Part shown: one piece after another, positions 1-49,247 of the stretch
Position numbering within the stretch: the first letter of the stretch is position 1
How the letters are laid out: the number at the start of each line of letters is the position of its first letter
DNA from: Raillietiella orientalis
Taxonomy: Eukaryota
Assembly: GCA_036172245.1 (NCBI GenBank)
Contig: JAYWIR010000148.1
Coordinates: 1-63,891, forward strand
Reading direction: 5' to 3'
DNA length: 63,891 nt
Translations under genes and position numbers: made by a program
Notes under the pieces: model-generated
What the model was told of the DNA's origin: nothing
Seen by the model: the letters and a program-made list of their open reading frames with translations, nothing else
Database searches by the model: none

Positions 1-459
1 AACCAGATGGGCAATCCGCACGCCTGCTTCGGTCAGCCAGTCTCTCTGGAGGGCAAGGAAAAACTCTTTCCTCGCCCTCCTGTTCATCAGGTCCTTGCGG
101 CTCGGTGCGTACACGTTCGTGACGATCAGATTGATCGAGTCGGACCACCTGAGAGTCAGCTGGACGACACGACCGTGATCGTCGAACCGCACGCCCCGAG
201 CCGCGGCCTCGACGGCTGGCCGGAGCAGGTAGGCGACACCGCAACTTTTCGCTCTCCCACACCTGTACCATAGCCGCCCTCCGGTGATCTGTTCGATCTC
301 TTGCGCTTGTTCTGCAGAGATCACGTGGATCTCCTGCAGCAGCGCAAGGTCGTAGGACTCCAGAAGGGCGGCCATGTCTCGTCTCCTGCCGGCGTCTGTC
401 ATGCCGTTCACGTTCCAAACGGCGATGCGCAGACGACGGCGGGAGGAGATTCCCGGCAT
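1..459 (-). pseudogene. ORF2 N-terminus (APE endonuclease), partial
   Basis: TAATG at 457-461 (minus), MPGISSRRRLRIAVWNVNG, LLQEIHV, TNVYAP. Confidence 0.88.
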
Positions 460-473
460 TACTGCTGGGAAGA

Positions 474-2135
474 TTAAGGTGTGGGGGAGCCCTCCTCTTG
501 CGAGGCGGGCGGGATGTTCATGGGGGTTTCGTCCTTCTCAGGCACCTGAGGCACCAGTTCGGCCTCCACCCCCTCCATCCCCTCCGTGTCCGCGCGTGGG
601 AGTCTCTGGGTCGACGGGTCCCGAGAGTTTCCCACGCTCATGGCACCCTTGCTTGCGGAAGCCATCTCTTCCCCTTCGACGGGGGAGACGAGCTTCCTTG
701 GCTTTGTGGACTTACGTCCAGCCTTCTTGCGCGGTGCCGTGAAAACGGAGGCTGCGCTTCCGGCCTCCACCTCGGGGTCGGAAGTGGGGGACTCCTGAGG
801 GGAGGCCGGAGGCCTTACGGCCTTCTTGCCAGCCTTGGAGGGTTCTGGCTGCAACGAGGCTGCCAGCTCCTCCGCGGCTCGCGCGAAGGCTACGTCATCG
901 ATGGTGGTGTCGATGACGGACGCCGCCGCCGGCTCGCTCCCCTCGCTGTTGACTGTGTCAACAGAGGGGAGGTCGTCGGTAGCGGCGAGTTCTTTCCGGC
1001 AGCGTTCGGCAACATCGAGAACGCGTTCGACAACGACGCTGCACTCTTTAAATATCGCGCTACCCTGCTCTTTCTTCTTCTGTTCTTAGGCGATTTTCTT
1101 TTCCATCCTCCTCTGCTTCTATGATTTTTTGGCCGTTGCCACTTGCCACTTAGTCTCCTTGCCGGCTCCCTCAACTTTTTCGGCGTTGGTCGCCGGTGTC
1201 TCGGCTGCGGCCTTGGTCTTGGGCGCGGGTGGCACAGCCTTCGCGGCAGCTTTCGCCGCCAGCCTTTTCTGCAGAAGCCGGGCGCGTTTTCTAAGCTTTC
1301 TCTTGGAAACCACCCGCACTACTGCTTTTGGGCACACCTCCCTCGTGTGGCCCATTGTGCCGCATACTTGGCACTGCACATTGGGACACCTCTTTTTGAG
1401 GTGGCCCGACGTATTGCAGAAGCCACAGTATTTCGGCTTCCCCACATACCAGAGGTCGACGGTTTCGCCTTCGACCACCAGTTTGTGGGGAAGAGTGCAG
1501 CCCTCCCGAACGGTCACGCGCGCAGCAGTGAGGCCGTGTTGCAGCCCCGTGTAGTCCTCGAAAGGACTAACTTTCGTCCACTGCGCGTGGACCGTTCCAA
1601 ACTGTTCCAAAGCGGCGCGAACCTGTTCTTTGCGCATTCGCGCGGTCACGCCTAACAGGTGGACCACCATGCTGCGGTCCGCCGTAGTGGGGAGAAGCCT
1701 GCGCGTCCCCATCACAACGGGGGTTTTAAGCAGTCGTTGGGCCAGCTCTGCATGTTCTCAGATGACCTCAACGTACTGACCCCCGCTGCAGATGGTCATA
1801 GCGCTAAGCTCCTCCTCTTTCACATCGAGAGAGCGCATGCCGTTCGAGAAGGCGCGCGCGCTCTCTAAAGAATATAAATTGCTTACCTTGTAGAACAATG
1901 AGGGGTTGTACCCCTCCTCCACATAGGCCGACAATTCCGCCGCGGCTGCTGGCGATGGCGCCGACACAACGGCGCTCCACGCCCGCGCTGCAGCAAGGAC
2001 CGATTCTGTGAGGGCGGATGCCACCACCTCCATCGCCTCTGGGGGTGACGTTTCCGCCGCCCCCGGGCTCTCCATCGCCTCTGGGGGCGGGGTTGCCGCT
2101 GCCCCCTGGCCATTCCTGGTGGTCGCGTCAGGCAT
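474..2135 (-). pseudogene. ORF1 (gag-like, two CCHC knuckles), disrupted
   Basis: ORF pieces 1758..2285, 1119..1715 and 474..854 join into one ORF1 homologous to 4515..6167, with a stop and frameshifts. Confidence 0.88.
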
Positions 2136-2228
2136 CGCTGCCTGATCGACCACCGAACCACACGACGCTTGCACTGGGGGAGACTTCCTGGCACGAGGAG
2201 CACCGAGAAAACACGTCCACCCTAGAGC

Positions 2229-4336
2229 GCACAAGGCGTTCGACTGTGTACACCAGGATCTCCTCCTAGAGCTCCTGAGTCGCATGGGCTTCCGACCCTC
2301 CTTGATTCCCTACCTGCGCTCTTGCTGGCGGAACGCGATAATTTCGATTTCTTTCAGCAGTCAAAAGGTGTATAACGTGCCGGTGCGGCGAGGCATACGG
2401 CAAGGCGATAGTCTAAGTTCCCTGCTCTTTAGCACCTACTTTCAGTTGGAGCTGAGAGCGTACAGAGTGATTTTGTCCCCCATGACGAGCTCATGTCCCG
2501 GCACGCCCGCCGTAAGTGTTTATGGTTACGTTTTGCTGCTCTTGTTACCTATGTGCACCCCGGCGAAGGAGGTCGGAGATTTCTTCGACCTCCTCAACCG
2601 CGGGACCGGACTGCAGGTGAACAGGGCGAAGTCGTCGGTGGTGCCAGTTGGTGCGGCGTGGGCAGGGCAGCAGGACTGGGTCCGTTTTGGGCCCTCCATG
2701 GGAGGTGCATCGAGTACCTTGGTGTGCCGTTGAAGGACTTCTCCCCTGCGGAAGCGTGGTCGAGCTGCGTGCAAAAAGTCGAGACGGCGATCGGCCCGTT
2801 CCTGGAAGGCAAGTTTCACTTGCCGGAAGGGGCCGCGGTTTGCAACGCCTTTGTGGCCTTCATCCTCCGCCTCTGCCTTTTTGTTTGCCCTGCCCCAGGA
2901 GTTTTTAAAAAGAGGGCGAAGGATCTCTTCCGCATCGCCATTTGGGGCGAGGGGAAGCCCCGAGTCCCTTTGAAGGACCTTTGCGTTCCTCGTCCGGCCG
3001 GCAGACTTAGCCTCTTTACGCTGGAACGCCTGGAGAAACAGCTGCCATGGCATATTCTCGCCAACGCTGCGAAAATGTGGAGCACCTTGTGGTGGATTCC
3101 GGCTCGCCATCTACCCAGTCTTGTGTCCTGGTGCGAGGGACTTGCGTCTTTTCTTCTGTGCCCTGGTGGGAAAATCAGAAGATGCGGCCTCTAGCACGGG
3201 CGCATGGCATCGTTGGCCATAGAGAACAGCTGGATGGTTTGCTGCCCCGATAACTCTTCCGCCTGGCTGAAGGAGAACATCGGAACGTGGGAAGTGGTGA
3301 ATGAGAGAAGCCACGTAACGTGGAATCGTCTCCGATGCAGCCCCTACGCCTCCTGTACTCTGAGAAATCTCCTAGAGAATCCAGCTAGGAGCACGTGGGC
3401 GGAGACAACCTGCCTGGTTACGGCGCTGCCCTTCCTAAGAAGGGCGCTTCATAGCAGTCGGACGCTAAGGTAACAAGTCTCCTGCTGCATCGAAGGACGC
3501 GAGAAGTTGATCAGGGGCTGGACAACAGGAGAACTGGCCGACGCCACGACCCCGAGCGTCCAGCCGCGAGGACTAAGAAGATGGGGCGAGCTGCTGGCCA
3601 TCCCTATTGATGTGATGAAGTGGCCTCCGCTTCTTCAGGAATCCAGGATCCTGCCCCTTAAGTGGAAAGAGTCGGCGTTGCTGTTGTTGCATTGGGGTTT
3701 ACCCTGCAACGCACGCCGCTCTCACTGGACAATAGAAGTTGTGGATCCTGCGTGTGTTAGGTGCGGAGAGCGGGAATCGCTCTCTCACCTTATTGTGGAC
3801 TGTGCTTCCCTTCGTCCCCTTTGCGAACGGTTGGGACGATCCTCGATCTCCCTACGGGCAGTTCCCCTAGAGACGTTCTTCAACCCCTCTTCGTGAAGGA
3901 CGCCCTGCAGCTAGCCGCAGCCCTTGCAGCCTTGTGCGGCGTCCGAGGCATCGTGGCGGTATGGAGCGACACCAACACGGAAAAGTTGGTCAACACGCGA
4001 TTGATGTCATCCAATATGCCCAACGCTTCTTGCAGAGAGCTGCTGGATGGCCCCGACTGAGGAACATACGGATGGACCTCGAGGGCTTTCTTCAACGAAT
4101 GGGCCCTCCTCTGGGAGAACAGAGATTCCTTCCCTGCTCTCCAACCTCTTTTGTTTGTTTGGGTTTTCATTTTCACTTTTGTTTTTTTCTCATCCCCTTT
4201 CGTTGCCGGAAAATGCCACGCCGGGCTCCGTCCCGGCGTCGCGGTAGGTCCCGTGCATAAGGCCGTGAGCGGGGACTGGTACCGCAATTGTAGAGCTTTT
4301 TATTGATAAACGCACCGGGTGTTCCCGGGTGGCAAC
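2229..4336 (+). mobile_element. Family C element, 3' part (RT from HKAFD, CCHC finger, 3'UTR)
   Basis: HKAFDCV, RGIRQGDSLS, YLGVPL, CVRCGERESLSHLIVDC, T-rich 3'UTR, ATAAA plus hairpin ending GGTGGCAAC. Confidence 0.9.
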
Positions 4337-4414
4337 TTCAAATCCCCGTGACAAGAGGTGCAAGGGGAACTCCTCGCAAAACTCGAGGACCGAGGCCTTA
4401 AAAAGGTCCCAATC
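4337..4414 (-). mobile_element. 78-bp ORF2 fragment of the host element that continues at 21138
   Basis: Reverse complement reads DWDLFKASVLEFCEEFPLHLLSRGFE, contiguous with GVTLQSLY at 21138-21162. Confidence 0.85.
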
Positions 4415-4437
4415 AGCGAAATTGCGGAGCGTCGAGC

Positions 4438-4444
4438 GGACGTG
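4438..4444 (+). promoter_or_regulatory. Conserved 5'UTR motif RGACGTG (DPE-like candidate internal promoter element); representative copy
   Basis: Present exactly or with small changes near all 12 element 5' ends. Confidence 0.5.
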
Positions 4445-4514
4445 TCTTTTCGTTGCTCCTGAGTCTCATTTCCGTTAGTGCTTGTGCGTGGAGTGGGTGG
4501 AGGATTAGGCACCA

Positions 4515-6167
4515 ATGCCTGATACCACCACCGGTGAGGATCCGGTGGCGATGACCTCATTGCCCCCGAAGGAGATGGAGGTGGGGGCTCCCGCATCATT
4601 GGAGGCTCCCGCCAGCACAAATGCGCCCCCGGCCCTACCCAGGGCTTGGAACGTCGTTGCTGCGGCACCTACGCCAGCGGCTATGGCGGAAATACGCGCT
4701 AACCTGGAGGAGGGGTATAACCCACCCCTTCTATATAAGGTAGGCGGTTTATATTCTCCCGAGAATGCGCGCGCCTTTTCGCAGGCGATGCGCGTTCTCG
4801 GTGTACTAAAAGAGGAGCTTCTGGCTATGTCAGTCAGAAGCGGGGGTCAATTTGTGGAAGTTATCTGCAAGGAGGCAACTCTTGCGCAGAGACTTCTGCA
4901 AATCCGCGTAATTATGGGCAGCTGCAGGCTTCTCCTAATTACTGAAGAACGGTCAGTGATCATTCACCTGACCGGTATCAAGTTCCGGATGACCAAGAAG
5001 GCCGTCCGGAACGAATTAGAAAAATTTGCAGCTGTCCACGCGCTGTGGGGAAACCCTACACCTTTTGTCGATTACGACGGGGTTCTTGGCGGCCTGGGTG
5101 CAGCGTCAGTGACGGTTTGCGAGGGATTTGAGTTTCCCCACAAGTTCACCGTCAACGGTGAATCCGCTGACGTGTGGTACGTGGGGAAACCCAAGTTTTG
5201 CGGCTGCTGCAGCAGCTTTGCTCACCTTAAAATGAGGTTTCCGTGCGTGCAGTGCCAGCAATGCAAACAAGCGGGGCACACCCGTCTGGTGTGCCCCCAA
5301 AACACAGTCCGCGTCGTGTCCGCGAAAAACGCGAGAAAGCGCGCGGATAAAAACAGAAAGAAGCTGGAAGCTCGTGCTGCTTTCAAGGAGGACACCTCCG
5401 TCACCAAGACGAAGGCCAGCTTCGAGACCCCGGCGAAAAACGCCGAAAAGGTCGAGGGCGAGGGTCAAGAGCCAGGGTGGCAGAAGGTCGACCCCAAGAA
5501 AAACTCCCATAAGAAGGGAAAGAACGTGGCGAAACGGAGCGAAACCGCTCTGCGCCGCGAAAAAATTAAAAGCTGCTGCGTCGTTGTAGAGCGGATTCCC
5601 GCCATCGACGAATGCGGCGCTAAAGAACTCGCTGCTGCCCCTGCTCAACCCTCCGTTTACAAAGTCAACAAGGAGGGGAGCGAGGCGGCGGCGTCCGTCA
5701 TCGAGCCCACGCTCGATGACGTCGCCTTCGAGCGCGCCGCGGAGGAGCTGGCTGCCTCGTTGCAGCCGGTTGCCCCCAAGGCTGGCAAGAAGGCCGTCAG
5801 GCGTCCGGCTTCCCCTCAGGAGTCGGCCACTTCCGATCCCGAGGTGAAGGCCGGAAACACAGCATCCATCTCCGCGGCACCCCGCAAAAAGGCAGGACGA
5901 AAGTCCACAATGCCCCGGAAGATCGTCTCCCCCGACGAAGGGGAAGAGATGGCTTCCGGTCGCGAGGGTGCCATGAGCGTGGGAAACTCCCGGGACCCGT
6001 CGCCCGAGAGAATTCCACGCTCGGACACGGAGGGGATGGTGAGGATGGAGGCCGAACAGGTACCCCAGGCGCCTGAAGAGGCCTCCGTCCTCGTTCCGAT
6101 GGTCCTCGTACCGATGGACCTTTCGTACACCTGCCCCGCGGCAGGTGCCGCGACGCCACTTTCCTAG
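4515..6167 (+). CDS. ORF1 nucleic-acid-binding protein (550 aa), zinc-knuckle region, low-complexity C-terminus
   Basis: Open frame; WYVGKPKFCGCCSSFAH and CQQCKQAGHTRLVC; the stop is 2 codons earlier than in the sister copy (CAG to TAG). Confidence 0.88.
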   Translation: MPDTTTGEDPVAMTSLPPKEMEVGAPASLEAPASTNAPPALPRAWNVVAAAPTPAAMAEIRANLEEGYNPPLLYKVGGLYSPENARAFSQAMRVLGVLKEELLAMSVRSGGQFVEVICKEATLAQRLLQIRVIMGSCRLLLITEERSVIIHLTGIKFRMTKKAVRNELEKFAAVHALWGNPTPFVDYDGVLGGLGAASVTVCEGFEFPHKFTVNGESADVWYVGKPKFCGCCSSFAHLKMRFPCVQCQQCKQAGHTRLVCPQNTVRVVSAKNARKRADKNRKKLEARAAFKEDTSVTKTKASFETPAKNAEKVEGEGQEPGWQKVDPKKNSHKKGKNVAKRSETALRREKIKSCCVVVERIPAIDECGAKELAAAPAQPSVYKVNKEGSEAAASVIEPTLDDVAFERAAEELAASLQPVAPKAGKKAVRRPASPQESATSDPEVKAGNTASISAAPRKKAGRKSTMPRKIVSPDEGEEMASGREGAMSVGNSRDPSPERIPRSDTEGMVRMEAEQVPQAPEEASVLVPMVLVPMDLSYTCPAAGAATPLS

Positions 6168-6172
6168 CCATA

Positions 6173-9100
6173 ATGCCGGGAATCGCCTCTCGCCGTCGTC
6201 TTCTGATCGCCTGTTGGAACGTGAACGGGCTAAGCGACGACGGCAAGAAACGTGACGTGGCCGCCACCCTGGCATCCTTCGACCTGGTGCTGCTGCAGGA
6301 GATCCACGTGATCTCCGCAGATCAAGCCCGGGAGATCGAACGGATCTCGGGTGGGCGGCTGTTGTGGCGTTGCGGCACCGCGAAATCAAGCGGTGTCGCC
6401 TTCCTGCTTCGGCCAGCCATCGAGACCGCAATAAAGGACGTTCGGTTCGATGACGCAGGTCGCTTCGGTCAGCTGACTCTCAGCTGGTCCGACTCTATCG
6501 ACCTGGTCGTCACCAACCTATACGCTCCTAGCGGAAACAACGCGTTGAGGGCGAAGGCAAGAAGGGAATTCTACCTTGCCCTGAGACGCGATTGGCTGAC
6601 CGATGCAGGAGTTCGCAAAGCGCACCTGATCGCAGGTGATTTCAACCTGCGCCTGCTTTCAGGTGCGCCGGATACACTGAACGACCGCGTCAACGAGTTG
6701 TGCGCAGAAATGAACCCGCGCAACTTGTTGGCCGGGTACACGGCCATGGAAAGCAGCATCGATCACGTGTACCTTGATCAGCACCTATGCTCTCGGGTGG
6801 GCAGGCGCGGCAAGGTACCATCCGAGCTGTCGGACCATGGTCGGATCATGTTCGAAGTGCGTCCGCGCGACAAGGGCCCCCCCTCGTCAGCGTGGCGTCT
6901 GCCAGGGGACTGGTTGAAGTTTCCCGACGCGGCGGAGCACCTCCGCGCGTTTATTCGGAGCTTCAGGATGCAGACACTTCAGGACTGGGACCGCTTCAAG
7001 CGGTCGGTCCAGGAGTTCTGCGACCAGTTCCCCCTGCATCGCCTACCTGCGGGATTTGGGGAGGGGCCGCGTAACGAAAGGTGCTATCTTCAGGCCCGAC
7101 GTTACGCGAGAACCCCCGACATGCGCAGGTTAGCAGAGTATCGAGCGGGAGCCAAGAGGCAAGCCTGGCAATCCCGGTCGGCTAGCTTGCTGGACGACCA
7201 GGGCCGGGAGCACTCGGCTCCTGCTCAGGAGCGCGGCATTGTGAAGAAATTTTACTCCTCCCTGTATGCCAGGGCGCCTCCGGAGCGAGACATCTCACGA
7301 CTTCTGCTTCCGGAAGGTGCTCCAGCGATCGGGGAGGAGGAGAAAAGAAGCCTCGACGAGCCTTTCACGATGGACGAGATCCTCTCGGCCATCGGAAAGC
7401 TCAAGAGGCGGAAGGCTCCAGGGGAGGACGGCCTGCCCGCGGAGTTTTACCAAACTTTCGCGGCTGAGCTTACTCCCCTGGTACATCAGCTCACCTTGCT
7501 GATCCGTGAAACAGGTGACGTTCCCACCTCGTTTCGTTCAGCAAAGGTGCGGCTCCTCCCGAAGGGAGGAGACCTAAGGAGCATGAACAACTGACGTCCC
7601 ATCACAATAGTGAATTCGGACGCCAAGTTGATAGCCAAGATGTAAGCAGAGCGTCAGGGACGTGTTGCCAGCATCTTCATCAGCCCGGAACAGACTTATC
7701 CTGTTCCCGGGCGGAGCATGGAGGCGAACCTGTTCCACGCTTCCACATGGTTAGAGCTCTAACAAGGAATGGGATTATTGAGCAGCCGGAATTCCGGTGC
7801 GTCTGTTGGCGGGAGACGGAACGGTCGGGTAAGGAAGGGAGCCCTTGCGGTCGCTGTCGACTTGCGTAAAGCATTCGACAGCGTCGACCAGAATCTCCTG
7901 CTGGAGCTTCTGGAACGCTTGGGCTTCCCGGCCTCTTTGTTGGCCTACCTGCGCTCCAGCTGGCGCGACGCGCTCATTAATGTTCTTTTCAGCGGACAAA
8001 CCGTGCACGGAGTAGCGGTGCGACGCGGCATACGGCAGGGAGACAGTCTGAGTCCCTTCCTATTCAGTACCTACTTCGAGTTGGTACTGAGAGCGTACAG
8101 GGAGACTCTGGCGCACCTGTCGAGCGATTGTCCCGGTACGCCTGCGGTTTGGGCATACGCGGACGATCTTCTGCTGCTGCTGCCTATGTACACCCCGTCT
8201 TCGGCGGTCGAGGAGTTCTTCGACCTGCTGCATCGGGGAACCGGACTTATGGTGGACAGGGCGAAGTCATCCGTAAGGCCAGTAGGAGCGGCGTGGGCTG
8301 GGCAGCAGGACTGGGTCCGTTTGGGGATCCCCACGGTGAGGTACTTCAAGTACCTTGGTGTGCCGTTGGGGGACTATTCCCCTGTAAAAGCGTGGTCCGG
8401 CTGCCTTCAGAAGGCTTATGCGGCGATCGGTCCGTTTCAGGACGGCAGGTTCTTCCTGCATGAACGGGCCGCGGCGTGGAACGCGTTTGTGGCCCACCTC
8501 CTTCGCCCCTTGCTTTTTGTTTGCCCCCCCTGAGCAGAGTCAAAGAAGGGGACGAAGGACCTCCTGAGGATCGCCCTTTGGGGCAGAGGGAGGCCCCGAG
8601 TCCGTCTTTCCGACTTGTGCGCTCCTTGTCTGGATTGTGGTCTGGGCCTTTTGACGTTGGAACGGCTGGAGTTACAGCTCCAGTTCCGAGTTGTTCCCTT
8701 TATGGCAGAAAATTGCGGCACCCCTGGGTGCCTCCTTGCACGTCTCCTCGTCGAGCGGGCCACCGGCAATGCGAAACTCTCGTCCTACATTGCACTCCGA
8801 AGCTTCATCTGCCACTGCGGACTTCAACTTCGGAGGGCGGCCAAGCTCGTGAAGAACAACTCGGCGCGGATCCTCGTACGCCCCGCGAACGATCCTGCCT
8901 GGTTGCAGGAAACCGTACGCATGTGGGCGATGATTCAGGAGCAGAGCCCGCAACACGAGTGAATAGCTCTGTTCGGGCCGCATGCCCACCGCACGCTCCG
9001 AGAAATCGTCGAGAATCCCCGAAGGAGAGCGTGGGCACAAAGAACCTCCCTTGCTGCGGTACTGCCTACCCTACGGGAACATCTGAGCAGCGACGTCGCG

Positions 9101-9754
9101 GCACAATGTGAGGTTACTGTCAAGATCGCCAGCAGAGCAAAGAAGATCGGGGATTAGAGAACGGGTCAGATCATTAACGCTGCGACCCCGAGGACCACCC
9201 CAAATGGACTGTTGCGCTGGGGAGAGCTACTGGATGTTCCAGAGGAACATCTCGAGTGGCCGCCGGTGCTCATGGAATCGCTCACCCTCCCCATGAAGTG
9301 GCAACAGTCGGCACTGCTTGTGATGCATTGGGGGCTTCCTTGCAACGCCCGCCGACACCACTGGACGCGGGGGTGTGTCAACCCTAATTGTGTCAGGTGC
9401 GGGGAGAGGGAATACCTCCTCCACCTGTTAGTGGATTCTTTTGCCCTCCGTGTTTTGTGGGAACGCTTTGCCGCAGCCCTGGGGATCCACGGAGGCAACC
9501 CTAGAGACGCTTTGCATACCCTTCTCGTCCGTGACGCCCTGCCTTCAGCGGCCTCGCTTTCAGCCCTGTGCTGCCTACGCGGGATCGTCGTAGCATGGAG
9601 TAAAGCAACGGGAGGATCCAGCGACACGAATGCCAACGTGTATGCCGCCCGTTTCCTCAGGATGGCGACGCGATGGCCCCTTCTGGAACCACACACGCAG
9701 AAACAGCTTGCCGGCTTTCTCCATAGGACGACGGTCCCTCCCAGAAGACTGTGA
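6173..9754 (+). pseudogene. ORF2: APE endonuclease + reverse transcriptase + C-terminal CCHC finger, several stops and a frameshift
   Basis: WNVNG, LQEIH, NLYAP, GDFN, SIDH, SDH; KAPGEDG, RPIT, KAFD, RQGDSLSP, YADD, KYLG; CVRCGEREYLLHLLVDS. Confidence 0.93.
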
Positions 9755-9822
9755 TTCCTTCCCGCTCCCTCCCTGATTTTTGTTTATTTCTTGTTTTCTT
9801 TTTGTTTCGTTCCTTCTCCCCT

Positions 9823-9966
9823 CTGCTGCAGAGGTCGACCGCGCGGGTCTGCGCACCGGTAGCCCGGCAAGCTATATTTTTCCAGGACGTGGATGGACTA
9901 CTGGTCCAGTCACAGATTGTATAGGTTTATTCGTGAGAATTAACGTCCCGGCGCACCCGAGTTTCA
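9823..9966 (+). other. Structured 3'UTR and terminal stem-loop; representative copy
   Basis: Stems are preserved with compensatory changes among families. Confidence 0.7.
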
Positions 9967-29214: not shown

Positions 29215-30001
29215 GTGATTTGGCGAGGGTCCTCGCAAACATAGGACTTATTTACAGGTGAGCCGGTACGAGAGAACCGCTAATGTCCGTCGCTTGGCCG
29301 AATACAGCGCTGGGGCCGAAAGCCAAGCCTGGTAATCCAGGTCGACCAGCCTGCTGGACGCCCAGGGCAGGGAATGGTTGTCCCCGGCGTCGGAACGGCA
29401 TCTCGTGCGGAGTTATTATTCCTCCCTTTACGCGTGAGCGCCCCCAGATCAAAATGCTTATAAGCGCTTGCTTCCGGATGGTGCCCCGGCAATAGGGGAG
29501 GAGGAGATATTTAGACTTGACGAGCCTTTTACCACCGGAGGAATTCTTTCTGGTATCAACAGGCTCAAGAGGCGAAAATCTCCAAGGGAAGACGGCTTAC
29601 TCGCGGAGTTCTTTGAGAGCATCGCACAAGAGCTCGCTCTCCTGCTGCTTTAGTTGACAAGGGTGATCTGAGATCAAAGCGAAGTTGCCTCCTCGTTTTG
29701 GTCGGGCAGAGTGGGGCTCCTCCCGAAAGGAGAAGTCCTCAGAAAATTGAACTTGCGTCCGATCACGATCGTGAATACGGACGACATGTTGATAGCTGCC
29801 ACCCGGTCACGCCGGGGCGTTTATTAAAAATTCTCTTCGATACGTGGTACAAGGCCCCACTACGGCCAACTCAACTGGACCTGCCGGGTCGCCAGTACGC
29901 AGACCGGCGCGACTCTCCTGGGCAGCGGAAGGGGGTGGGGGAAAAAACAAAAAGAAAAATAAAACATAAAAACAAGAAGATTTGGTAGGGTTGGGGAGGG
30001 A

Positions 30002-33000
30002 TCACTGACCACTGGGAGGAGGGCCCATCCTTCTCAGGATGCCCTCGAGGTCCGTCCGTATAATTACCAGGTGGGGACATCTGGTGACAATCCGCAAGTA
30101 GCGGACTGCAAGTACGACGGCATCCCTGTCGTGGCTCCGTCTTCCGACGTTGCTCCAGCACGTCACAATCCTGCGAACGCAGCAAAGTGCAGCCAGGGTA
30201 GCGGCTGGACGCAGGGCATCATGCACGAACAGAAGCCGAAAAACGTCTCTGGGCATGCTGCCCTCCTGGATCCGTAGGGAGGCACGAAGACGTTCCCACA
30301 GGGGTCGGAGGGCAGCACAATCAACAAGGAGATGTGGGAGGGTTTCCCGTTCCCCACAACTGATGCAGGTAGGATCTACTCGACCCCTGGTCCAGTGGTG
30401 GCGGCGTGCGTTGCAGGGTAGACCATAATGCAACAACAGAAGCGCCGACTCCTGCCACTTTAGGGTGAGGATCCTAGAACCAATTAATACCGGGGGCCAC
30501 TTCAGGTCATCCGGCTGGATGCCGATTAGCTCGCCCCATCTCTGCAGTCCTCTCGGCTGGACACTAGGGGTACTGGCGTATGCCAGTTTACCCGTGGACC
30601 AGCCGCTGATCAACTTCTCCTTGCCTGCGATGCGGCAGGAGACTTGCCACCTAGGCTTGCGGCTGCTGGAGAGCGCCCTCCTCAGGAAGGGCATCGCCGT
30701 AGCTAGGGGGTTGTCTCTGTCCACGTGCTTCTTGCGGGAAACTGGAGTATCTTCCGCAGAGTGCAGCGGGAATAGGCGCCGCGTCGCAGGCAGTTCCACA
30801 TCTCTTCATTCTTTTCATTAATCTTCGCCCACGTGCCAGCTGTCTCCGCCAGCCATGCGGAGAAGTTGGCGGGGCTGCATTCCATCCAACCGTTTTCCTT
30901 TGCCAGGGTTGCCATGCGTCCCAGGAGGAGTATGCATCTCTTGATCTTCGAGCCGCGGCACAGAAGATGAGACGCGAGACCCTCCGTTCCGGATACACGG
31001 CTGGCAAGGAGTCGGGCAGGAACGCACCATGGGGTGCTCCATAACTTCGGTGCGATGGCCAGGGTGCGCCACTGCAGCTGGATTTCTACTCTGTCCACCG
31101 TCAAAAGAGCCAGACCGCTATCTCGACGTGGAGCACACAAGTCCTTCAACTGGACTCGGGGCCTCCCTCTTCCCCAAAGGGCAATCCTCAGGAGGTCCTT
31201 CGTCCTTTTCTTCATGTCTCTGGGGACGGGGCAACAAAAAGTAGGGGGCGGAGGATGGGAGCCGCGAAGGAGTTCAACACCGCGGCCCGTTCCGGAAGTA
31301 GTAACGTGTCTTCCAAGAACGGGCCGATCGCCGTTTCTACGTTTTGGAGGCAGCCGGACCACGCATCGGAAGGGGAGTAATCTTCCAACGGCACACCGAG
31401 GTACTTGAAGCACCTCGCCGAGGGGATCCCCAAACGGACCCAGTTCTGCTGCCCAGCCCACGTCGCACCGACTGGCACCACCGACGACTTCGCCTTGTTA
31501 ACCTGCAGTCCGGTTCCGTGGTTGAGAAGGTCAAAGAAATTTTCGACTGCCTTTGCCAAGGTGGACATCGGCAACAATACCAGATCATCGGCGTACGCTG
31601 CTACGGCGGGCGTGCCGGGGCACGAGCTCGGCAAGGGGGCCAACGTCACCCTATACGCTCTCAGTACCAACTCAAGGTAAGTGCTAAAGAGCAGGTAACT
31701 GAGGCTGTCGCCCTGCTGTATGCCCCGCCGTACCGGCACGCCGTACGCCATTTGAACTCTGAAAGAGATATTCATCAGCGCGCTGCGCCAGCAAGAGCGC
31801 AGATAGGTCAGTAGGGAGGGAGGAAAGCCCATGCGTCCCAGGAGCTCCAGCAGGAGATCCTGGTCCACGCAGTCAAAGGCTTGATGCAGATCGACTGCGA
31901 TCGCTGAGGCTGCCTTCCCCACCTGGGAGTCGTGTCCCTGCATGGCTGACGCCCCCAAAGCGGGGCTGCCAATCCTTCCCTCTTCCTTTTCTTCACTACT
32001 CTGCACATGAAACCATGCGCTCGCGAAGAAGAGGTTGACCTCCATACTTCGCCCGGGAACAGCGTAATTCTGCTCCGGGCTAATTATGGAATTGGCCATT
32101 TGCCCCAGACGCGAAGCCCACAGTCCGGCGATCAACTCGGCGTCCGTGTTCACAATTGTGATCGGACGCCAGTTGCTGAGTTTCCTGAGGTCTCCTCCTT
32201 TCGGAAGGAGCCTCACTCTGGCTGACCGAAACGAGGCGGGCACATGGTCTTCATCTCGGATCAGCCTTGTCAACTCAAGCACCAGGGGTGATAACTCTGC
32301 CGCGAAGCATTGAAATAACTCCGCAGGCAGGCCGTCCTCCCCTGGTGCTTTCCGCCTCTTGAGACTTTTGATACCGGCGAGAATTTCGCCGGTGGTAAAA
32401 GGCTCGTCGAGGCTTTCCTTCTCATCCTCCCCTATTGCCGGGGCACCGTTCGGAAGCAAGCGCCGAGAGGCATCTTGGTCCGGGGGCCCCTGGCGTAAAA
32501 AGAGGAATAATAACGCCGCACGAGGTGCCGTATTCTAGCCGGAGCCGAGTGCTCCCGGCCCTGGTCGTCCAGCAAGCTGGCCGATCCGGATTGCCTGGCT
32601 TGGCGCTCGGCCCCGGCTCGGTACTCTGCCAGGCAACGGACATTGGGGGTCCTCTCGTACCGGCGGGCCTGTAAATAGACCCTATGGTTCCGAGCCTTCT
32701 CCCGAAATCCGGCGGGCAGGCGGTGCAGGGTGAACTCCTCGCAGAACTCGCGGACCGAGTCCTTGAAGAGGTCCCAATCTTTGAGACTGCGGAGGGTGAC
32801 GCCTTTGAGGAATTCGCGAAGGTGTTCCTTCGCATCTGAGATGCGCGTCCAGTCCCCAGGCAACCGCCACGCCCTGGACGGAAGTCCTTTGTCGCGCGGG
32901 CATACCTCCAATATCAATCTGGAATGGTCAGACAGTTCCGACGCAACTTTCCCCGTTTGCCGACCCGCGAGCACAGGTCGACGTCCAGGAAGACGTGGTC

Positions 33001-33581
33001 GATGCTGCTGACCATTTCCGGGAGTTACCCTAACAAGTTGCGCGTGCGCATGGCAGAGCACAACTCGTTAGTCGTCCGTTCCTGTGTGCGTGCCTCACCT
33101 GATAGCAGGCGGAGATTGATGTCTCCCGCTATCAGGTGAGCCACGCGAACGTTCGCTTCCACCAGCGAGTCGTGCTTCAGGCTTTCCAGGAACGCCGCGC
33201 GTTCCCGGTACCTCTTATAACCGCTCGGGGCGTATACCTTTGTTACGACGAGGTCGATCGTGTCGGACCATCTGAGAATCAGCTGGCCGACACGACCGGC
33301 TTCGTCGAAGCGGACGCCCTTCACGGCAGCGTCGACCGCCGGCTTCATGAAAAACTTGACGCCGCAGGTGAATCGGGTGCCGCATTGACACACCAGCCGC
33401 CCCCTGCGATCCTTTCGATCTCCTGGGCGTCCTCCCCGGTGATCACGTGGATCTCCTGCAGGAGTGCCAGGTCGAAGTCACGCAGGGTGGCTGCCGTGTC
33501 CCGTCTGTTGCTGTCGTCGCGCAGCCCGTGGACGTTCAAACATGCCACACGCAATCGACGGCGACAGGCGAGCCCAGGTGT
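30002..33581 (-). pseudogene. ORF2 (APE-RT-CCHC) of the family D copy, frameshifted
   Basis: 415-aa RT piece 31212..32459 with KAPGEDG, NWRPIT, QAFD, YADD; CISCGERETLPHLLVDC. Confidence 0.92.
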
Positions 33582-35320
33582 TATTCCCGGGTAAGTGGCA
33601 ATGGGGCTCCCGCCACCTGGTCGGTCGGGACGGATGGAGGCATAGGGGAACCGCCCAGCGGTTCTCCCACCTCCATGGGGGCCCATTCCTCGGCGGACCG
33701 GAACGATTGAAGGGAGCATGCTTCACGCACCTGCTTCCCCTCTTCCATGGGGGCCGATTCCTCGGCTGCGTTGGACGGCAGGGGGAGCGGTTCTCAGCTG
33801 TCTTCTCGCCCTCTTCCATGACCATCTCCTCCGCAGGCTCCACCGGTGGAAGGGGGAGGCAATGCCCTACCTGCTCCCCCTCCTCCATGGGGGTGGCCGG
33901 CTGCTTGGTGGCGGAGGATGGGAAAATTCCTCCCTCCGTTCCCACGCTGCCGGCTTCCCCCTCGGCTGCCGCTGCGTCCCCCTCGCTCTTCGTCGGGATG
34001 CGCCTCTTGGGATTCTTGGACTTCCGTCCAGTCTTCTTCGGAGGCGCCTCCGTGGAGGAGAACGCACTTCCGGCGTCCGGGTCGTGGTCACCTGTCGGAG
34101 GTGCCTTGGTCGCGGCCGGCCTTCGCAAGGCCTTGCGCGCGCCGTTCTAACGGTCGGCGAGTTCGGCCGCGAGCTCTTCCGCCGCCTGCTGGAAGGCGGC
34201 CTCGTCGATCGCGGCGAGCGCGTCGCGCGGTCCCCCCTCTGTTCGCACAGAGGGTTCGCCTTCCGTGATCGCGTTATCGTCGGCGTCGACTCGGGGGATA
34301 TCTCCCCCGGTGGCGGTCTCGGGTACCTCCAGACGCTCCAAAGCGACCGAACATTCGCGGATCAACGCGCGACGTTGTCTCCTATTTAAAGGAGACGTCG
34401 CGGGTTCCGCTGTCGACCCTTCGGTTTTCTTTGGTTTCTTAGCTTTAGGCTTCGCCTTCTGCCAGCCTTTGCTCTTTTCAGCGTCGTCGGTAGATTCCAC
34501 GACCGGCGTTGGCTGCACGGGCTCGGGCTCCGGATGTGGGTTCTGCCTCACGGGTGCCTTCGCAGGGTTTTCCGTAGCCTCCGCGCGTTTCCCTTTGGCC
34601 TTTTTCAAGGCAGCGGGAGCCGGGGTTTCGCGCTTCGGGCACACTTTGCAAAGGTGGCCCTTTTCTCCACAGTGGAAACACTGGATGTGAGGGCACCGCT
34701 TTTTCAGGTGCCCTGTGGCATCACAGTGTTCACAGTACTTGGGCTTGCCCACGTACCAGACGTCGACGGTCTCGTTGCCGACGTCTAGTTTGTGGGGTAG
34801 CCCTCCGTTTTCGTGGACGGTTACACGCGCACCAGCCATGCCAGTAAACAGTCTTCCGTAACTTTGGAAGACGTTGGTCTTGGGCCATAGCGCGTGAACC
34901 GTTCCGTATTTTCCGAGTTCCTCCTGTACGTCGGCTTTCGACATGCGGAGGGTGACTCCCGTGAGGTGCGTCACCACGGAGCGATCCTTCGTTACCGGGA
35001 AAACCTTCCGGCCTTCCAGTGTGATTGGCGCATTCAGGAGGTGTTGAGCAAGGCTCGCATTTCTGCAAGTCAGCTCCACCCGCTAACCACCACTCAACAC
35101 GGAAAGACCTTCCAGGTCTTCCTCTTTTACGTTCAACCGCTGCAACTCCCTTCCGAAGTTGCAAGCGGTGTTCCCGACAAACAGATTGCCTACCTTGTAT
35201 ATCAGGGACGGCTTGTATCCCTGCTCCAGGTAGGCTTTTTGCTCGGCGAGGGCTGCAGGAGATGGGGCTGTAGCCACTGAACTCCAGGTCTTCGGCGATG
35301 CCGAAGACGCATTCGAGGGT

Positions 35321-35497
35321 GCAGGTGCCCCCTTTTTCAAGGAGGCGGTTGCGCCCTTTTTCAGGGTTGCGGTTGTCCCCTTTTTTCAAGGGGGCGGTTG
35401 CACCCTGTTCCAGCGGGGCTTTTGCCCCCTTTTTCAAGGGGGCCTTTGCCCTCGTTTCCGAGGCGGCGGTTGCCCCTTTTTCAGGGGTGCGGCTGCC
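35321..35497 (-). repeat. About 24-bp coding minisatellite (about 7 imperfect units, GATAPLKK-like) in the ORF1 N-terminus
   Basis: Recurring gcggttgcccctttttcaaggg units. Confidence 0.8.
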
Positions 35498-38059
35498 GTC
35501 GCCTCCGTGGGGGCAGTTGCCCCCACCTTCGTGGGTTGGGAAGAGGAGCAAGCCTTTCCCCCTCCTATATCCATCGCGGTGTCCTCAGGCATTTCTGCCA
35601 TTGGACACCGCAGATGCTTCACACACAAACACAAAAGAAACCAAACGCTTTACACCAGGCGCGGAAGAGCGCTACAAAAACACGTCCGCACGCCAAGTTG
35701 ATAGCAGGGCTATGGGCTTCGCGTCTGGGGCAGGTGGCAGAATTCATAATTTGCCCGGAGCAGAGTTATGCTGTTCCCGTGCGAAGTATGGATGCCAAGC
35801 TCGTTTTCGAAAGTACGTGAATGCACCTGAAGAGGAGTCAAAAGGACGAAAACGGTAAAAATTCCAACCGTACTTTGGGGCTGCCAGTTGTACATTAAAA
35901 TAATTTCCAAGCAAGGAAGGGATATCCGGTCGAAGAAGGGGGCCCTAGCGCTCCCAGTCGAACTCCAGGAGACGTTCGTTTGCGTGGAGCAGGATCTTTT
36001 GTTGTAGCTCGTGCGTCGCATGGGCTTTCCACCCACTTTGATAACCTACCTGCGCTCCAGCTGTCGCAATGGGATAATTAATGTCTTTTTCAGTAGTCAG
36101 AAGGTGTATGGCGTGTTCGTTCGGCGGGACATAATGCATGGCGACAGTCTCAGTTCCCTGCTCTTTAGCACCTACTTTTAGTTGTTGCTGAGAGCGTAAA
36201 GGGTGAACTTAGCATCCTTGGAGAGCTCGTGCGACGGCACGTCCCCCTCAGCAGCCTTTGCCGACTATCTTCTGCTTCTGATACCTTTGTCCACCCCGGC
36301 GAAGGCGGTCGGAGGTTTCTTCGATCTGCTCAACCGTGGGACAGGACTGCAGGTTAACAAGGCGAAGTCGACGGTGGTCCCAGTCGGTGCGGCGTGGGCA
36401 GGGCAGCAGGACTGGGTCCGTCCGGTGATCCCCACGGCAATGTGCTTCAAGTATCTTGGTGTGTCGTTGGAAGCCTTTTTTTCTGCGGAAGCTGTCTCCA
36501 AAAAGTTGAGACGGCGATCGGCCCGTTCCTGGAAGGCAAGTTTCACTTGCCGGAACGAGGCGCACTTTGGAACGAATTTGCGGCCCTTAAGTTCCGCTTC
36601 TTGCTTTTTGTTTGCCCTTCCACTGTAGAATGCAAGAAGCGGATAAAGGACTTACTCCGCGTCGCGCTTTGGGGCAAGGGGAGGCCACGAGTCTCTCTGA
36701 AGGACTTGTGCACTGCGCGTCGGGACGGCAGTCTCAGCATCCTGACGCTGGAGAACGTGTAAATCCAGCTGCGGTGGCGAACCTTTTTCATCGCAGTAAA
36801 GATGTGGATCACCCTTCGGTTCATTCCGGCCCGCCTCCTCTCCAGGCGTGTGTCCCTGTGCGAAGGACTCGCGTCTTTTCTCCTGTGCCCCTGCCGGAAG
36901 ATCCGTAGATGCTGCCTACTGCTCGTGCGCTTGGCAACCCTGGCGAAGGAGAACAGCTGGATGATTCGTGTCCCCGACAACTCCTCCGCCTGGATGGAGG
37001 AGACTGCTGGCACCTGCGCTAAGCAAAACCCGAGCAGTAATGATCCGATGAACTACCTGCTTATCGGCCTATACGCTCTCTGCAAAATGCGAGACATACT
37101 TGAATTTCTTGCAAGACGCACGTGGGCGGATGCGATCTCCCTTGCTACGGCGATGATCTACCTCCGGAGGGCGCTTCACGCCCGTCATAAGCCGAGGTTG
37201 CAAGTTTCCTACCGAATCGCAGGCACGGAGGTGATCAGCGGCTGGAAAACAGGAGGACTGGCAAACGCCAAGATCCCGTGCGTTGAGCCGCGAAGACTGA
37301 AGAAATGGAAAGAGCTGCTCGCCATCCCCATGAATGTGCTGAAGTGGCCCTCGGTGCTTCAAGAATCCAGGATCTTGCCCCTTAAGTGGCAAGATTTGGC
37401 GTTGCTGCTGTTGCATTGGGGTTTACACTGCAACGCACGCCGCTTCTATTAGACAAGGGGAGCTATGGATTCTAAGTGTGCTAGGTGCGGAGAACAAGAA
37501 TCGCTCTTTCAATTTATCGTGAACTTTTCTACACTCCGTTCTCTTTGGGAACGGTTCGGAACAACCGTCGGGCTCACTACGGGCAGTACACCTAGAGACG
37601 TTCTCCGGTCCCTCTTCGTGAAAGACGCCATGCTGCTAGCCGCAGCCCTCGCAGCCTTGTGCTGCGTCCGAGGCATCGTGGTGGCCTGGAGTGACACCAA
37701 GAACGAAGGACTGAATCCAAACGCGTTGAATGTCATCCCATATGCCCAACGCTCCATGCGGAGAGCTTGTGGATGGCCCCAACTTTGGAATATAAGGATG
37801 AACCTCGGGGGCATCCTTCAAAGGATGGACCCTCCTCACAGCAAGCAGTGATTTTTTTCTCGCCCTCCAAGTTGTTTTGCTTGTTTATTTTTATTTTTAT
37901 TTTTGTTTTATCCCCATCCCTTTTCGCTGCTGAGGTACGCTACGCCGGGTTGCGTCCCGGCGTCCCGACAGGTCCCGTGCATATAGCCGTGAGCAAGGCT
38001 TCGTACCGCGGCTGTAGATTTTTCTCGAATAAACGTCTCGGGCGTACCTCGGTGACAAC

Positions 38060-40790
38060 GCCGAAACCCGGCGTAAGACGTTCCAGGGGAAACTGGTTGC
38101 AAAACTTGCGGACTGAGCACTTCATTTCGTCTCAGCCCGCGAGCTTCTCAAGATGAACTCCTCTCAGGAAGGCGCGCAGATGTACCACCGTTCCTGCGAG
38201 TCGCAAACAGTGCCCTGGCAGACGTCATGTTTTCAAGGGACGGCCCTTATTTCGCGGATTTAACTCGAGCGTGAGCCGTGGATGGTCGGACAGCTATGCT
38301 GGGAGCGTTCCTCGAGTTCCCATCCGCGTGCACAGGTGGTTGTCGAGGAACATGTGGTCGATGTTCCGACCTCTCCCTGCATCACCGGCCAAGAGGTTGC
38401 GCGCATTCACTACTGCAAACAACTCGTTGACCAGTTGTGCTCGTCTGTTAAGGACACCTGCCAGTAGGCGGAGAATGAAATCGCCTGCAATGAGGTGCCC
38501 CCTCCGTAAGCCAGCTTCAGCTAGTCAGTCTCGCTGCAGGGATTCGAAAAACGCAGTTGGTTCTTCGGCTTTGTGCTTGCTCACTGGTGCGTACAAGTTC
38601 GTCATCACAAGTTCGATCGAATCGGACCACTTGAGAACAAGTTGTCTAACTCGACCGTCCCCGTCAAACCGAGCGCTTCGCAGTGAGTTGTCGACGGCCG
38701 GCTTCAGCAGATAGGCCACTTTGAAGAAGAAATCTGTTCCGTTCCTCCACAGTAACCGCCATTCTGTGATTCTTTCGAAATCCTGGTCTGCTTCTGCTGT
38801 GAGCATGTGAGTCTCTTGTAGTAGCGCCAGTCGAAGTCTCGCAGAATGGCGGCTTCGTCTCGCCTCTTCCCGTCGCTGCTCAACTCGTTGACGTTCTAAG
38901 ATGTTAGTCGCAAGCGGCGAGAGGAGGCGAGTCCACGCAATGGTGTTGTTATGGTGGGGTGGAGGAAACCGCCTCCTGTTCAGAAGACCGGTGGTCCGGG
39001 TCCATGTCGTTGGAGTGTTCAGGAGCATCGCTCACTCCGTCGACCGTGGACTGTGTTAACAGTTGGTAAAGGATGCTCTCAGGCACGAAGTCGCATTGTG
39101 CAACGCACATGGACTCTTCCTCGCTGTCAGATGCCATTTCGACCTCTTCCTGAGAGGTGAAAGCACGCCTACGAGCTCCTGTTGCATTTCTATGTTCTCT
39201 TTTTGGTAAGCCAACGGAGGGCGAGTTCCCGCTTTCGGCGTAAGACTCGGAGGTTTCCGGGTCTTTTGCCGTAGCCGGGCGTCGAACGGCCTTCTTCCCG
39301 GCCTTCACTGACTAACTCAAGAAGGCAGCCAACTCTTCCGCGGCTTGCGGGAAGCTTGCATCCGAGATGCGTTTCACCTCATCACGGATTTCGCCGCCTG
39401 TTGGCGTGTCCGGTGACGTAACAACCGATTCGATAGCGGCAACCGGCGCTCCATCGTTCGGCACAGCCGCAGCTGAGCTTTCGCTCGCCGCTACAACGCT
39501 TCCAGTTAACAAGACTGGAACAACAGTATCGATCGCGGCAGCGTGCACCGCGCTATCGATGGCGACCGTAGCGATTTCGCCATACGGGGCCGGAACCGCT
39601 TTATCAATCGACGCCGCAGCTGTAGTATCGGTCGTTGGCTTGCTGGTTGAAGTCTTCGCGGGAACGCGATCGATGTGTACGATGGAACGGCGGACGGTTT
39701 CTTCCACCACTTTCACCGTATTCTTAGGGACCTTACCTTTCCCCTTGCTTTCCTTCTTCACAGACTGCCAACTGTTTTCGGCAAGTGTTTCGCCTTTCTC
39801 CGGCTTTAGTTCCACAGGCGTCCATTTCTCTCCTGGTTGGGAGGTTTTACCAGATGGGGGATCCTGTTTGTCTGGCTCCTGTGGCGACTCTGCTCTCTTG
39901 TTACCAACAGGAGTAGACGCAAAACGAAGAGGGCACAGCTTTCTCACGTGGCCCTTGTTCTCGCAGCGAAGACACAGGATGTTGGGGAGTCTCCCTTTAA
40001 GGTGCCCGGTGGTCTCGCAGTTACCGCAAAATTTGGGTTTCCCTATGTACCACAGATCGACGATTCCTATGTACCAGAGACCACAGTCGGTGGGGTAAAC
40101 CACTATCCTCGCTGGCTGTCACACGCGCGGCGGCATAGCTACTGATAGCGCTAGTATACCCCTGGGTGTTCTGCTGTGCCCACAGCGCGTGATCGGTCCC
40201 GTATTTCTCCAATTAGGCTCGAACGGCGTTCTTTGCCATTCTCATCGTCACCCCGGTAACGTAGATGACGATCGATTTGTCGGCAGTAAACAAGAAGATC
40301 CTTCTCCCGTTCACGGTCACCGGGCATCTCAGCAACTGATGAGTCATTCCTGCAGTTCTGCAGTTCAGCTCGACTAGCTGACCGCCACTGCGAACAGAAA
40401 GGCCAAGAACTTCTTCTTCCGGCACATTCAGTTTTTAAAATTCCGCGGCAAACGTTCTCAACATCGCGGGAGAATAAAGCCCACATACCTTATACAGTAG
40501 GGCCGGGTTGTATCCGTGAGACTCATAGGCCCTTTGTTCCTCGCATGGTGGCGGCGCGGGAGCCGCCACCACCGCACTCCAAGCCCTCGCCCAAGCAGGG
40601 GAAGGAACTCTGGGGGAGATGGCCCCCACATCCATGAGCTGAGGGGACGAGGCACGCACGTCCCCCTTTTCCGCACTGGCGGTGTCCTCAGGCATTTCTG
40701 CCTTCAAAACACCGCCCAAACACCACACAACCTACAAACTCGCGCTAAAACGCAGAAGAAGCAAAAGAAACACGTCTGCCGTCACGGCGG
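38060..40790 (-). mobile_element. Family X element, 5' part (ORF1 MPEDTASAEK..., APE, linker to PGFG)
   Basis: CGNCETTGHLKGR, CLRCENKGHVRKLC, LLQETH, NLYAP, GDF; AGACGTG at about 40771-40777. Confidence 0.88.
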
Positions 40791-45900: not shown

Positions 45901-46459
45901 AAGGCTCCAGTGCAGGACAACCTGCCCGCGAAGTTTTATCAAACCTTCGCGGCTGAACTTACCCCACTGGTACAGCAACTCACCTTGCTGATACGCGAAA
46001 CAGGTTACGTCCCCGCCTTGTTTCGTTCGGCAGAGGTGCAACTCTTCCCTAAGGGAGGAGATCTGAGGAGCATGAACAACTGGCGCCCCATCAGAATAGT
46101 GAATGCGGACGCCAAGTTGCTGGAAAGGCTTGGGCAGAGCGTCTGGGACGGGTTGCCAACATCTTTATCAGCCCGGAACAGACATATGCTGTTCCCGGGC
46201 GAAGCATGGAGGCGAACCTGTTCCAGGCTTCCACCTGGCTAGAGCTCCAACACCAAAGGAGCTTGGTGCGCTGTGGAATTCCGGTGCGTGCGCCGGCAGG
46301 GGGTTTGATGGTCGGGTGGGAGAAGGAGCCCTTGCGGTCGCAATCGACTTGCGGAAAGCATTCGATTGCGTAGACCAGAATCTCCTTCTGGAGCTTCTGG
46401 AACGCTTGGGCTTCCCGCCCTCATTAGTGGCCTATCTGCGCTCCTGCTGGCGCGACGCC
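42907..46459 (+). mobile_element. Family A element, 5'UTR through RT motif KAFD, then truncated
   Basis: ORF1 42999-44648 with internal stops; ORF2 from 44663 to YLRSCWRDA. Confidence 0.92.
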
Positions 46460-49237: not shown

Positions 49238-49247
49238 TTTCTTAGTG

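Follow-up and report, generated by a model that had tools for sequence, protein, structure and literature searches.

A deep stack of L1-group retrotransposons in Raillietiella orientalis, with families that appear to insert at fixed sites within one another

Layers and junctions of the stack

The DNA studied here is contig JAYWIR010000148.1 of the Raillietiella orientalis assembly GCA_036172245.1 (210 Mb, 491 contigs; contig C148 of genome G000 in our handles), taken as the entire contig of 63,891 bases and called the window from here on. The GC content of its first 50,000 bases is 54-62%, and they consist nearly completely of related repeats, which in the first 41 kb form a stack of retrotransposons lying one inside another. 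These repeats are retrotransposons that lack long terminal repeats (non-LTR), of 5.5-5.9 kb, with a first open reading frame (ORF1) that carries CCHC knuckles and a second (ORF2) that encodes an apurinic/apyrimidinic (APE) endonuclease, a reverse transcriptase (RT) and a weak zinc motif. Profile matches to PF03372 (Exo_endo_phos) and PF00078 (RVT_1) are above the cut-off, PF13966 (zf-RVT) is weak and below it (E 2e-4 to 1.5e-3), and zf-CCHC is also weak; for ORF1, Atlas feature matches of 0.93-0.94 were found to CCHC proteins, with RBD_ZCCHC3 in 12-13% of the members of one cluster. The best match among solved structures is human L1 ORF2p (E 8e-26). In the protein database, two unnamed proteins stand at 78% and 51% identity and all other relatives at 20-39%; ten were looked up, and the two of these that have names, from a turtle and a fish, are 31-33% identical. 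The translated copies contain stops or frameshifts.

The elements begin with a short leader followed by GGACGTG and a run of Ts, and they end with AATAAACG..CCGGGTG-NNAA, around 30 nucleotides (nt) past AATAAA. Long interspersed nuclear elements (LINEs) of the L1 group usually carry a 3' poly(A) or simple-repeat tail, but no such tail was found here, where the ends are fixed and finish in NNAA. Domain content and similarity place the elements among the L1-group LINEs. A 3'-terminal RNA hairpin is not claimed: a short inverted repeat is visible, but 8 out of 8 ends fold no better than shuffled sequences (z -1.7 to +2.0). The full B copy at window 4415-9965 serves below as the coordinate system for positions within elements; apart from A, C, Z and X, the family letters were coined in this analysis, and contigs are always named as such, so that contig C13 is not to be confused with elements such as C1 or C2.

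Read from the left end, the innermost layer (1..2229, minus strand) is the 5' 2.2 kb of a family A LINE, comprising leader, 5' untranslated region, ORF1 and the start of the endonuclease, with its 5' head at 2217 and 96% identity to a full A copy; it is truncated by the contig start and lies antisense at the RT motif 'HKAFD' of the next layer. The latter is the 3' half of a C-group LINE, C3 (2230..4336, plus), which comprises everything 3' of the RT KAFD site and whose tail at 4331 falls on the C-group site (2651, antisense). There follow a 78-nt host piece of family C2 bounded by the C-group and B sites (4337..4414, minus) and a full-length family B LINE, B1 (4415..9965, plus, including the duplicated target at its 5' side), 90-98% identical to a young B copy and with Exo_endo_phos and RVT_1 matches. 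The APE endonuclease domain of B1 (6173..6910, plus) is stop-free and keeps the catalytic motifs, and it is some 16-20 residues short in the region of the betaB6-betaB5 hairpin. A second B copy, B2, stands in tandem with B1, in such a way that its 5' half (9967..12611, plus; 94% to B1, 91-95% to young B) and its 3' part (18276..21137, plus; older B sequence from around 19.8 kb) flank a full-length C-group LINE, C1 (12612..18275, minus), inserted antisense at the C-group site with both host sides present. The tail of B2, at 21135, lies on the B site (2570, antisense).

Farther out, the 5' half of a family Cl LINE (21138..23743, minus; 85-87% to a full Cl copy) is a sense insertion in ORF1 of an older A copy, A4, represented by its 5' 1.35 kb (23744..25096, minus; 83-84% to young A). 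A4 is antisense at the RT KAFD of a family Z LINE, of which the 3' half is present (25097..27176, plus) and which is itself antisense at the endonuclease 'EIERI' site (1952). The C-group LINE C6 (5' part, 27177..29214, minus) comes next, antisense at the C-group site of another C-group LINE, C7, whose 3' half (29215..38059, plus) is split into 29215-29796 and 35691-38059 by a full-length C2 LINE (29797..35690, minus), antisense at the RT motif 'NTD..L' (3203-3224); the same site is empty in a paralog on contig C13. C7 lies antisense at the C-group site of the outermost listed layer, the 5' half of a family X LINE (38060..40790, minus). At 40790 no host is visible: the 3' end of a second X-family copy stands there head-to-tail with X, and the 3' half of that copy (40791..42902, minus) is cut at its RT KAFD by an A copy (42903-46458, plus). 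This A copy stops around B-coordinate 3557, and both its 3' end and the 5' half of the second X are missing within the assembled sequence.

The earlier note, made from the letters of the window, had described these segments as the right half of a nest at least eight layers deep, and its segments, strands and boundaries (2228/9, 4336/7, 23743/4, 25096/7, 27176/7, 29214/5 and 38059/60) are right within a few bases. At each of the seven junctions the intact terminus of one element stands against an internal point of the next, so that insert and host can be told apart at all of them, and all seven fall on fixed, family-specific sites. The orientation alternates at every step save Cl in A, as had been claimed, because most target sites are antisense and Cl targets the sense strand. 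Besides the layers, the stretch holds two complete side insertions (C1 and C2) and the tandem B pair.

Family-specific target sites

The generality of these sites was studied in a junction survey of 670 kb in 15 regions, namely the window and regions mostly picked for similarity to it. It yielded 116 3' ends, 87 mapped inside a LINE, 8 tandem and 21 unmapped. Of the 87, 72 fall within 2 nt of another end's site; random placement gave a mean of 3.2 and a maximum of 12 (2000 draws). By strand, 65 were antisense and 22 sense. Six sites are antisense: that of A at 3468 (RT 'KAFD'), of the C group at 2651 ('HRLPxGFG'), of Z at 1952 (endonuclease 'EIERI'), of Y at 1926 (ORF2), of B at 2570 (ORF2) and of C2 at 3224 (ORF2, in the RT motif named above). 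Two are sense, the D site at 2221 (endonuclease 'GDFN') and the Cl site at 1356 (ORF1). In a tree built from the final 900 nt at 110 ends (midpoint root, several long branches), each main site corresponds to one clade, with the C2 and Cl clades nested within the larger group that uses site 2651. By these junctions, at least eight families each use their own single site inside sister LINEs.

Ends were also sampled genome-wide by element sequence, independently of the target. Among A 5' ends (the first 30 perfect matches of 220), 27 were at KAFD, in hosts of at least seven families, and 3 were tandem. The host flanks of these 27 insertions are only 44-96% alike, and therefore they represent mostly independent events. 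The A 3' ends were sampled with an A-specific tail pattern in place of the shared tail CCGGGTGAAAATC, which is not family-specific: 19 of 30 were at the KAFD site (three of them repeating three others), 5 were tandem and 6 elsewhere. These six are short copies with 11-16-nt duplications that begin with TCGA, TCGG or ACGA; RT-like sequence flanks one of them on the left. Cl 3' ends were found at the sense ORF1 site in 23 of 30 cases; of the rest, 3 were in tandem, 2 lay elsewhere in LINEs and 2 lay outside them. All three shares (27/30, 19/30 and 23/30) exceed the 20% of flanks above which target preference is assigned in passages of PMC4494074. The shared tail CCGGGTGAAAATC itself occurs 429 times in the genome. 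Large contigs carry many of these tails at scattered positions, so that part of the clade's families are dispersed and may seed new clusters.

The complete insertions carry target duplications of 9-16 nt (weak in C1), and an empty counterpart matching both flanks was found for 24 of 26; the window and contig C13 form such a filled and empty pair for the C2 site. Some A copies are truncated to 0.5-1 kb, and these have duplications of 11-16 nt. Several families are hosts to each other (the pairs A/Cl, A/C2 and B/Cl), and A rarely enters itself, with an A host for just 1 of 27 direct A insertions. For this last point host counts were used; a table of motif mismatches compiled for self-avoidance was partly circular and was dropped as evidence. 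Run X1 contigs (0.22 of words) were compared with window 1-9000, and in one of them a Y-type 3' end adjoins window base 296, the Y site of A. In a single case (G000:C87:23572-29128), the 5' copy of the target duplication resembles the usual A target and not the 3' copy in the host, as if replaced from the donor.

The joint between the two B copies

One of the eight layers described in the earlier note, a 'C-like' element made of 4337-4414 and 21138-23743, is not a single element: its short part belongs to C2 and its long part to Cl. The short one shares 70/74, 67/74 and 62/74 positions with three C2 copies, and 59/74 over the full length with the best Cl, while the long one is around 88% identical to Cl/C3 copies versus 76-80% to C2 copies. 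The duplicated targets that flank the B pair disagree between its two sides. In addition, the identity of B2 to young B copies, mostly 91-95%, falls to 83-89% at around 19.8 kb and rises only in the last bin. So 'layer 3' consists of two elements joined through recombination between two B copies, B2 being chimeric. The layers and junctions of the nest thus stand, but not its count: it would be either ten deep or two stacks spliced together.

C2 was observed antisense in B at 3203-3224 on contigs C13 and C88, and the B joint lies 3' of this site. In the ten-deep version, C2 would have sat in an old B, and recombination between B2 and the old B, 3' of the C2 site, would have removed around 5 kb and hidden two layers. 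The chain would then read A in C3 in C2 in old B in Cl in A in Z in C6 in C7 in X, and its leftward continuation would be an A 3' end with TCGAACGCCTTGTG, the C3 5' half, the C2 3' half, the old B 5' part and the Cl 3' half, followed by the A 3' part from the ORF1 site, Z 5', C6 3', C7 5' and X 3'. On grounds of parsimony we give this single nest with a deletion of about 5 kb slightly better than an even chance.

Alternatively, recombination between a young and an old B could have spliced two unrelated stacks, an inner A-C3-C2 and an outer old B-Cl-A-Z-C6-C7-X, the left halves of the outer one being deleted or located elsewhere. This is a serious possibility, somewhat short of even. It accounts for the different host families across the B pair and for the chimeric B2, and it is in line with what is seen at other loci. 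The region 2.486-2.524 Mb of contig C13 is a 92-95% paralog of window 22107-41022. Its C2 site is empty, and it has an additional stack at a point where the window has none; the 67 kb that follow it contain none of the halves of A4, Z, C6, C7 and X, and its Cl ends at a different target. Chimeras of Cl 5' and C3 3' sequence with unmatched flanks occur on contigs C29 and C111. Outside the window, a count by eye of 46 intact 5' ends (families A, B, C, C2, Cl and D) gave 25 with a partner and about 21 without, leaving out ends with too little room, two unclear cases on contig C84 and three degraded A copies on contig C13. Finally, a one-sided stack stands in the window contig itself (40791-46458). 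Against the splice, these data are also explained by a short deletion in one nest, which needs just the known target rules and a direct repeat close by, and fully mirrored stacks do exist, as at C13:2491486-2516074 with four inserted levels.

The relative chronology proposed in the earlier note holds in part. The inner-younger order follows from the termini and roughly from the identity to the nearest non-paralogous copy, which from inner to outer is 96% (A), 88% (C3), 87% (Cl), 83-84% (A4, to young A), 87% (Z), 80-81% (C6), 82% (C7) and 89% (X), these values coming from the best 40 or so candidates scored per search and depending on the number of surviving copies. X is out of order, and layer 3 is split; since recombination reshuffles layers, the use of the stack as a chronology is limited.

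Target recognition, the opposite arm and known systems

The endonuclease retains its catalytic motifs, and domains free of stops occur naturally in A, B, C2, Cl and D. A predicted model of the B1 domain (predicted local distance difference test score of 89) matches the L1 endonuclease (L1-EN) with a Z of 26 and a root-mean-square deviation of 2.2-2.4 Å over around 210 residues, and both fold and catalytic residues are like those of human L1 ORF2p (Protein Data Bank entries 1vyb and 8sp5). However, around 16-20 fewer residues separate the GDFN and IDH motifs than in L1 ORF2p, the linker between endonuclease and RT is much shorter, and the poly(A) tail is lacking. The spacing between the two catalytic aspartates is 41-43 residues in 14 of 14 copies versus 59-73 in 72 of 73 homologues. 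The HMMER alignment to L1 leaves a 16-residue gap over the connector and the betaB6-betaB5 hairpin (T192-S202 region), and the model has no hairpin strands between residues 185 and 196. This hairpin is thus predicted to be absent or reduced to a stub of 4-5 residues. In passages of PMC1950540 it is tied to target selection in L1-EN, and the Tx1L endonuclease is described there as nicking its own target alone. Other surface loops of the endonucleases vary by family, and we consider them the likeliest readers of the target. The stretch between GDxN and IDH is also short in a more distantly related LINE family of the same fields, which ends differently at its 3' side (C13:2456796, 2546817 and 2557311; C129:28002).

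The stack is probably the product of repeated target-primed insertion by one L1-group clade, each family entering at its own site in sister LINEs. The duplications, together with 3' ends that are fixed and copies that are truncated, suggest target-primed reverse transcription. Each family inserts, and would nick, at a short site of its own, placed in conserved codons of sister families, and each new copy supplies a fresh set of sites, with some pairs reciprocal. Because new copies bring sites and some families target each other, depth has no built-in limit, and the orientation of each insertion is set by the strand that carries the site. Recognition would most likely be performed by the element's own endonuclease, perhaps aided by read-through RNA that pairs with the nicked strand, a mechanism put forward for R1 (PMC2718515). 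Recombination between same-family copies would later erode the stacks.

Several points weigh against this explanation. Between families with different sites, the endonucleases are 52-68% alike, and they are without most of the hairpin tied to target choice in L1-EN. The main site was missed by around one in five A 3' ends in the sample and by 4 of the 30 from Cl, and the X family and several other tails show no single site. The site specificity is read wholly from genomic junctions. The ten-layer version is an argument from parsimony, and a splice of two stacks yields an identical right arm. Finally, identity to the C13 paralog is patchy (85-99.7% in 300-nt bins), and therefore conversion or recombination has blurred the ages.

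The junction data do not separate endonuclease recognition from RNA pairing, and it could be the RNA that selects the site. Transcripts would read through into the duplicated target, and their 3' extension would pair with the nicked strand, while a loosely specific, hairpin-less endonuclease supplied the nicks; a single stray insertion could then found a family with a new target. The short hairpin region in 14 of 14 aligned copies, the fixed 3' ends without poly(A), the resemblance of stray A sites to the main target just downstream of the nick, the appearance of new targets within one clade and the similar model sketched for R1 (PMC2718515, in part) would all agree with it. The six off-site A insertions, however, carried no extra target sequence, the endonuclease loops differ by family, and Tx1L-EN nicks its target alone (PMC1950540, as far as its passages on this enzyme go). 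We regard selection by RNA as unlikely. The same applies to its broader form, a speculative LINE guild with RNA-carried target choice, where stray insertions would reprogram the target and reciprocal targeting of essential codons would amount to an evolving conflict, with stacks ten or more deep.

Insertion by each family at its own site leaves the matter of the opposite arm. The earlier note had predicted one eight-layer nest with the eight missing halves upstream, in exact mirror order and with matching duplications. As the window is the entire contig, the assembly holds no upstream DNA in which this order could be examined, and the contig starts inside the youngest element, A. No other contig matched the first 3 kb of the window above 96%. 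From seven contig ends with an A 3' part that were fetched, none continued the window leftward; their sole overlap of at least 95% was 297 nt at 95.3%, in a different host family. In total, 10 of 20 large contigs checked (partly picked for having matches) begin in this clade, and one arm is seen chiefly because the contig breaks inside a young repeat. Such a break, together with the termini that fix insert and host at seven junctions and with five other A-in-C loci where the full A, the left host half and the 14-nt duplication are all present, would suit the eight-layer nest. By contrast, layer 3 comprises two elements, about half of the intact 5' ends elsewhere are partnerless and the C13 paralog is one-sided, which makes this form very unlikely. 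Beyond the innermost layers the mirror order is doubtful, as the opposite arm need not be a simple mirror, and at 'layer 3' it is wrong or broken.

Scarcely credible is that the pattern is an assembly artefact or a segmental duplication of one old nest without site-specific insertion, as duplicated stretches (C13/C129, C11/C13) and contigs that break in these fields could suggest. Hosts from many families share one and the same site, there are target duplications as well as empty sites, outer layers vary by locus and a run X1 contig (one only) also has the Y-type end at window base 296.

Other arrangements in these fields were also noted. Fold-back inverted pairs of same-family ends, another route to lost halves, lie at G000:C63:2644-5523 and at C13:2461241-2463674 and 2473675-2475556. 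G000:C13:2486435-2491477 and G000:C129:2276-7318 look identical in different surroundings, either a recent duplication or a haplotype pair, and an end of contig C11 repeats C13:2461227-2473661 in a similar way.

Target-specific APE LINEs are known from the Tx1 clade, and passages of PMC4494074 place Tx1L in Tx1D, Tx1-Mar in Mariner-N4_AMi, and Tx1-8_Crp and Tx1-4_AMi in LTR elements; transposons are among the known targets of such LINEs (PMC4494074 and PMC4640811, in part). As in these Tx1 elements, an APE endonuclease with an RT, a fixed site inside another mobile element, tandem copies and related families with differing targets are found here. In our case, however, the targets are coding motifs of sister LINEs, used reciprocally and in stacks seven or more deep, and the likeness is one of behaviour, without implying clade membership, the best named relatives being only 31-33% identical. 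The 28S rDNA-specific R1 also has an invariant 3' junction, a 14-nt duplication as in family A, target-like off-sites and tandem arrays (PMC2718515, in part), but its target is a host gene and not a LINE, and R1 belongs to another clade.

In appearance the fields resemble Zepp and ZeppL, L1 elements of green algae, Zepp being one family with arrays mostly of 3' ends and one cluster per chromosome (parts of PMC3446292 and PMC8226300): both are L1-group LINEs inserting into existing copies, in GC-rich nested clusters where assemblies break. Unlike Zepp, the clade here has at least eight families, each with its own single-base site, full-length copies are many and A seldom inserts into itself (1/27). 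Several separate clusters lie on contigs C1, C5, C13 and C26 among the matches listed, in an assembly that is not chromosome-level; they would speak against a single centromeric cluster on each chromosome. The likeness to Zepp concerns appearance and nesting and does not imply sequence kinship. A plant-type telomere repeat (six units) gave no match, which is uninformative, other repeat types not having been tried. As in nested clusters of LTR retrotransposons, layered insertion yields a relative chronology, but those, as far as parts of 10.64898/2026.09.17.752431 describe them, involve one centrophilic family, its target duplications vary, and iterative excision gives a mean depth of 2.86 at the deepest, whereas the sites here are fixed.

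What appears to be new is that many sister LINE families reciprocally use fixed codons of each other, in a mode like that of Tx1 and R1 and with a Zepp-like look. No published description of mutual LINE-in-LINE targeting was found in a search that left most subscription papers, Repbase reports and the supplementary tables of PMC4494074 outside. Target-specific LINEs usually sit in host repeats or unrelated transposons, and here close relatives use each other's conserved coding positions, reciprocally, in such a way that stack depth becomes a consequence of a family-specific targeting rule. The clade also offers, as a natural set for comparison, eight or more related endonucleases that differ in their single-base targets and are apparently without the usual target-reading hairpin, which makes target switching in APE LINEs testable.

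The rest of the window contains a few minor features. In the C2 copy, the 5' part of ORF1 (35300-35540) has short tandem repeats with APLKKG-like units, which vary among C2 copies. At 47016-49251 an A-family 3' part is fused, in the same orientation, to a C2-like RT near 49157 and is apparently chimeric, and a further tail type ends at 49251. The sole non-LINE stretch of the contig (50800-58800), around 8 kb with a GC content of 41-44% and without LINE match, includes one open frame of 228 codons (56404-57090). The right end of the contig (61660-63891) lies inside an A-type 5' part, antisense at RT KAFD, and hence both contig ends are within A copies.

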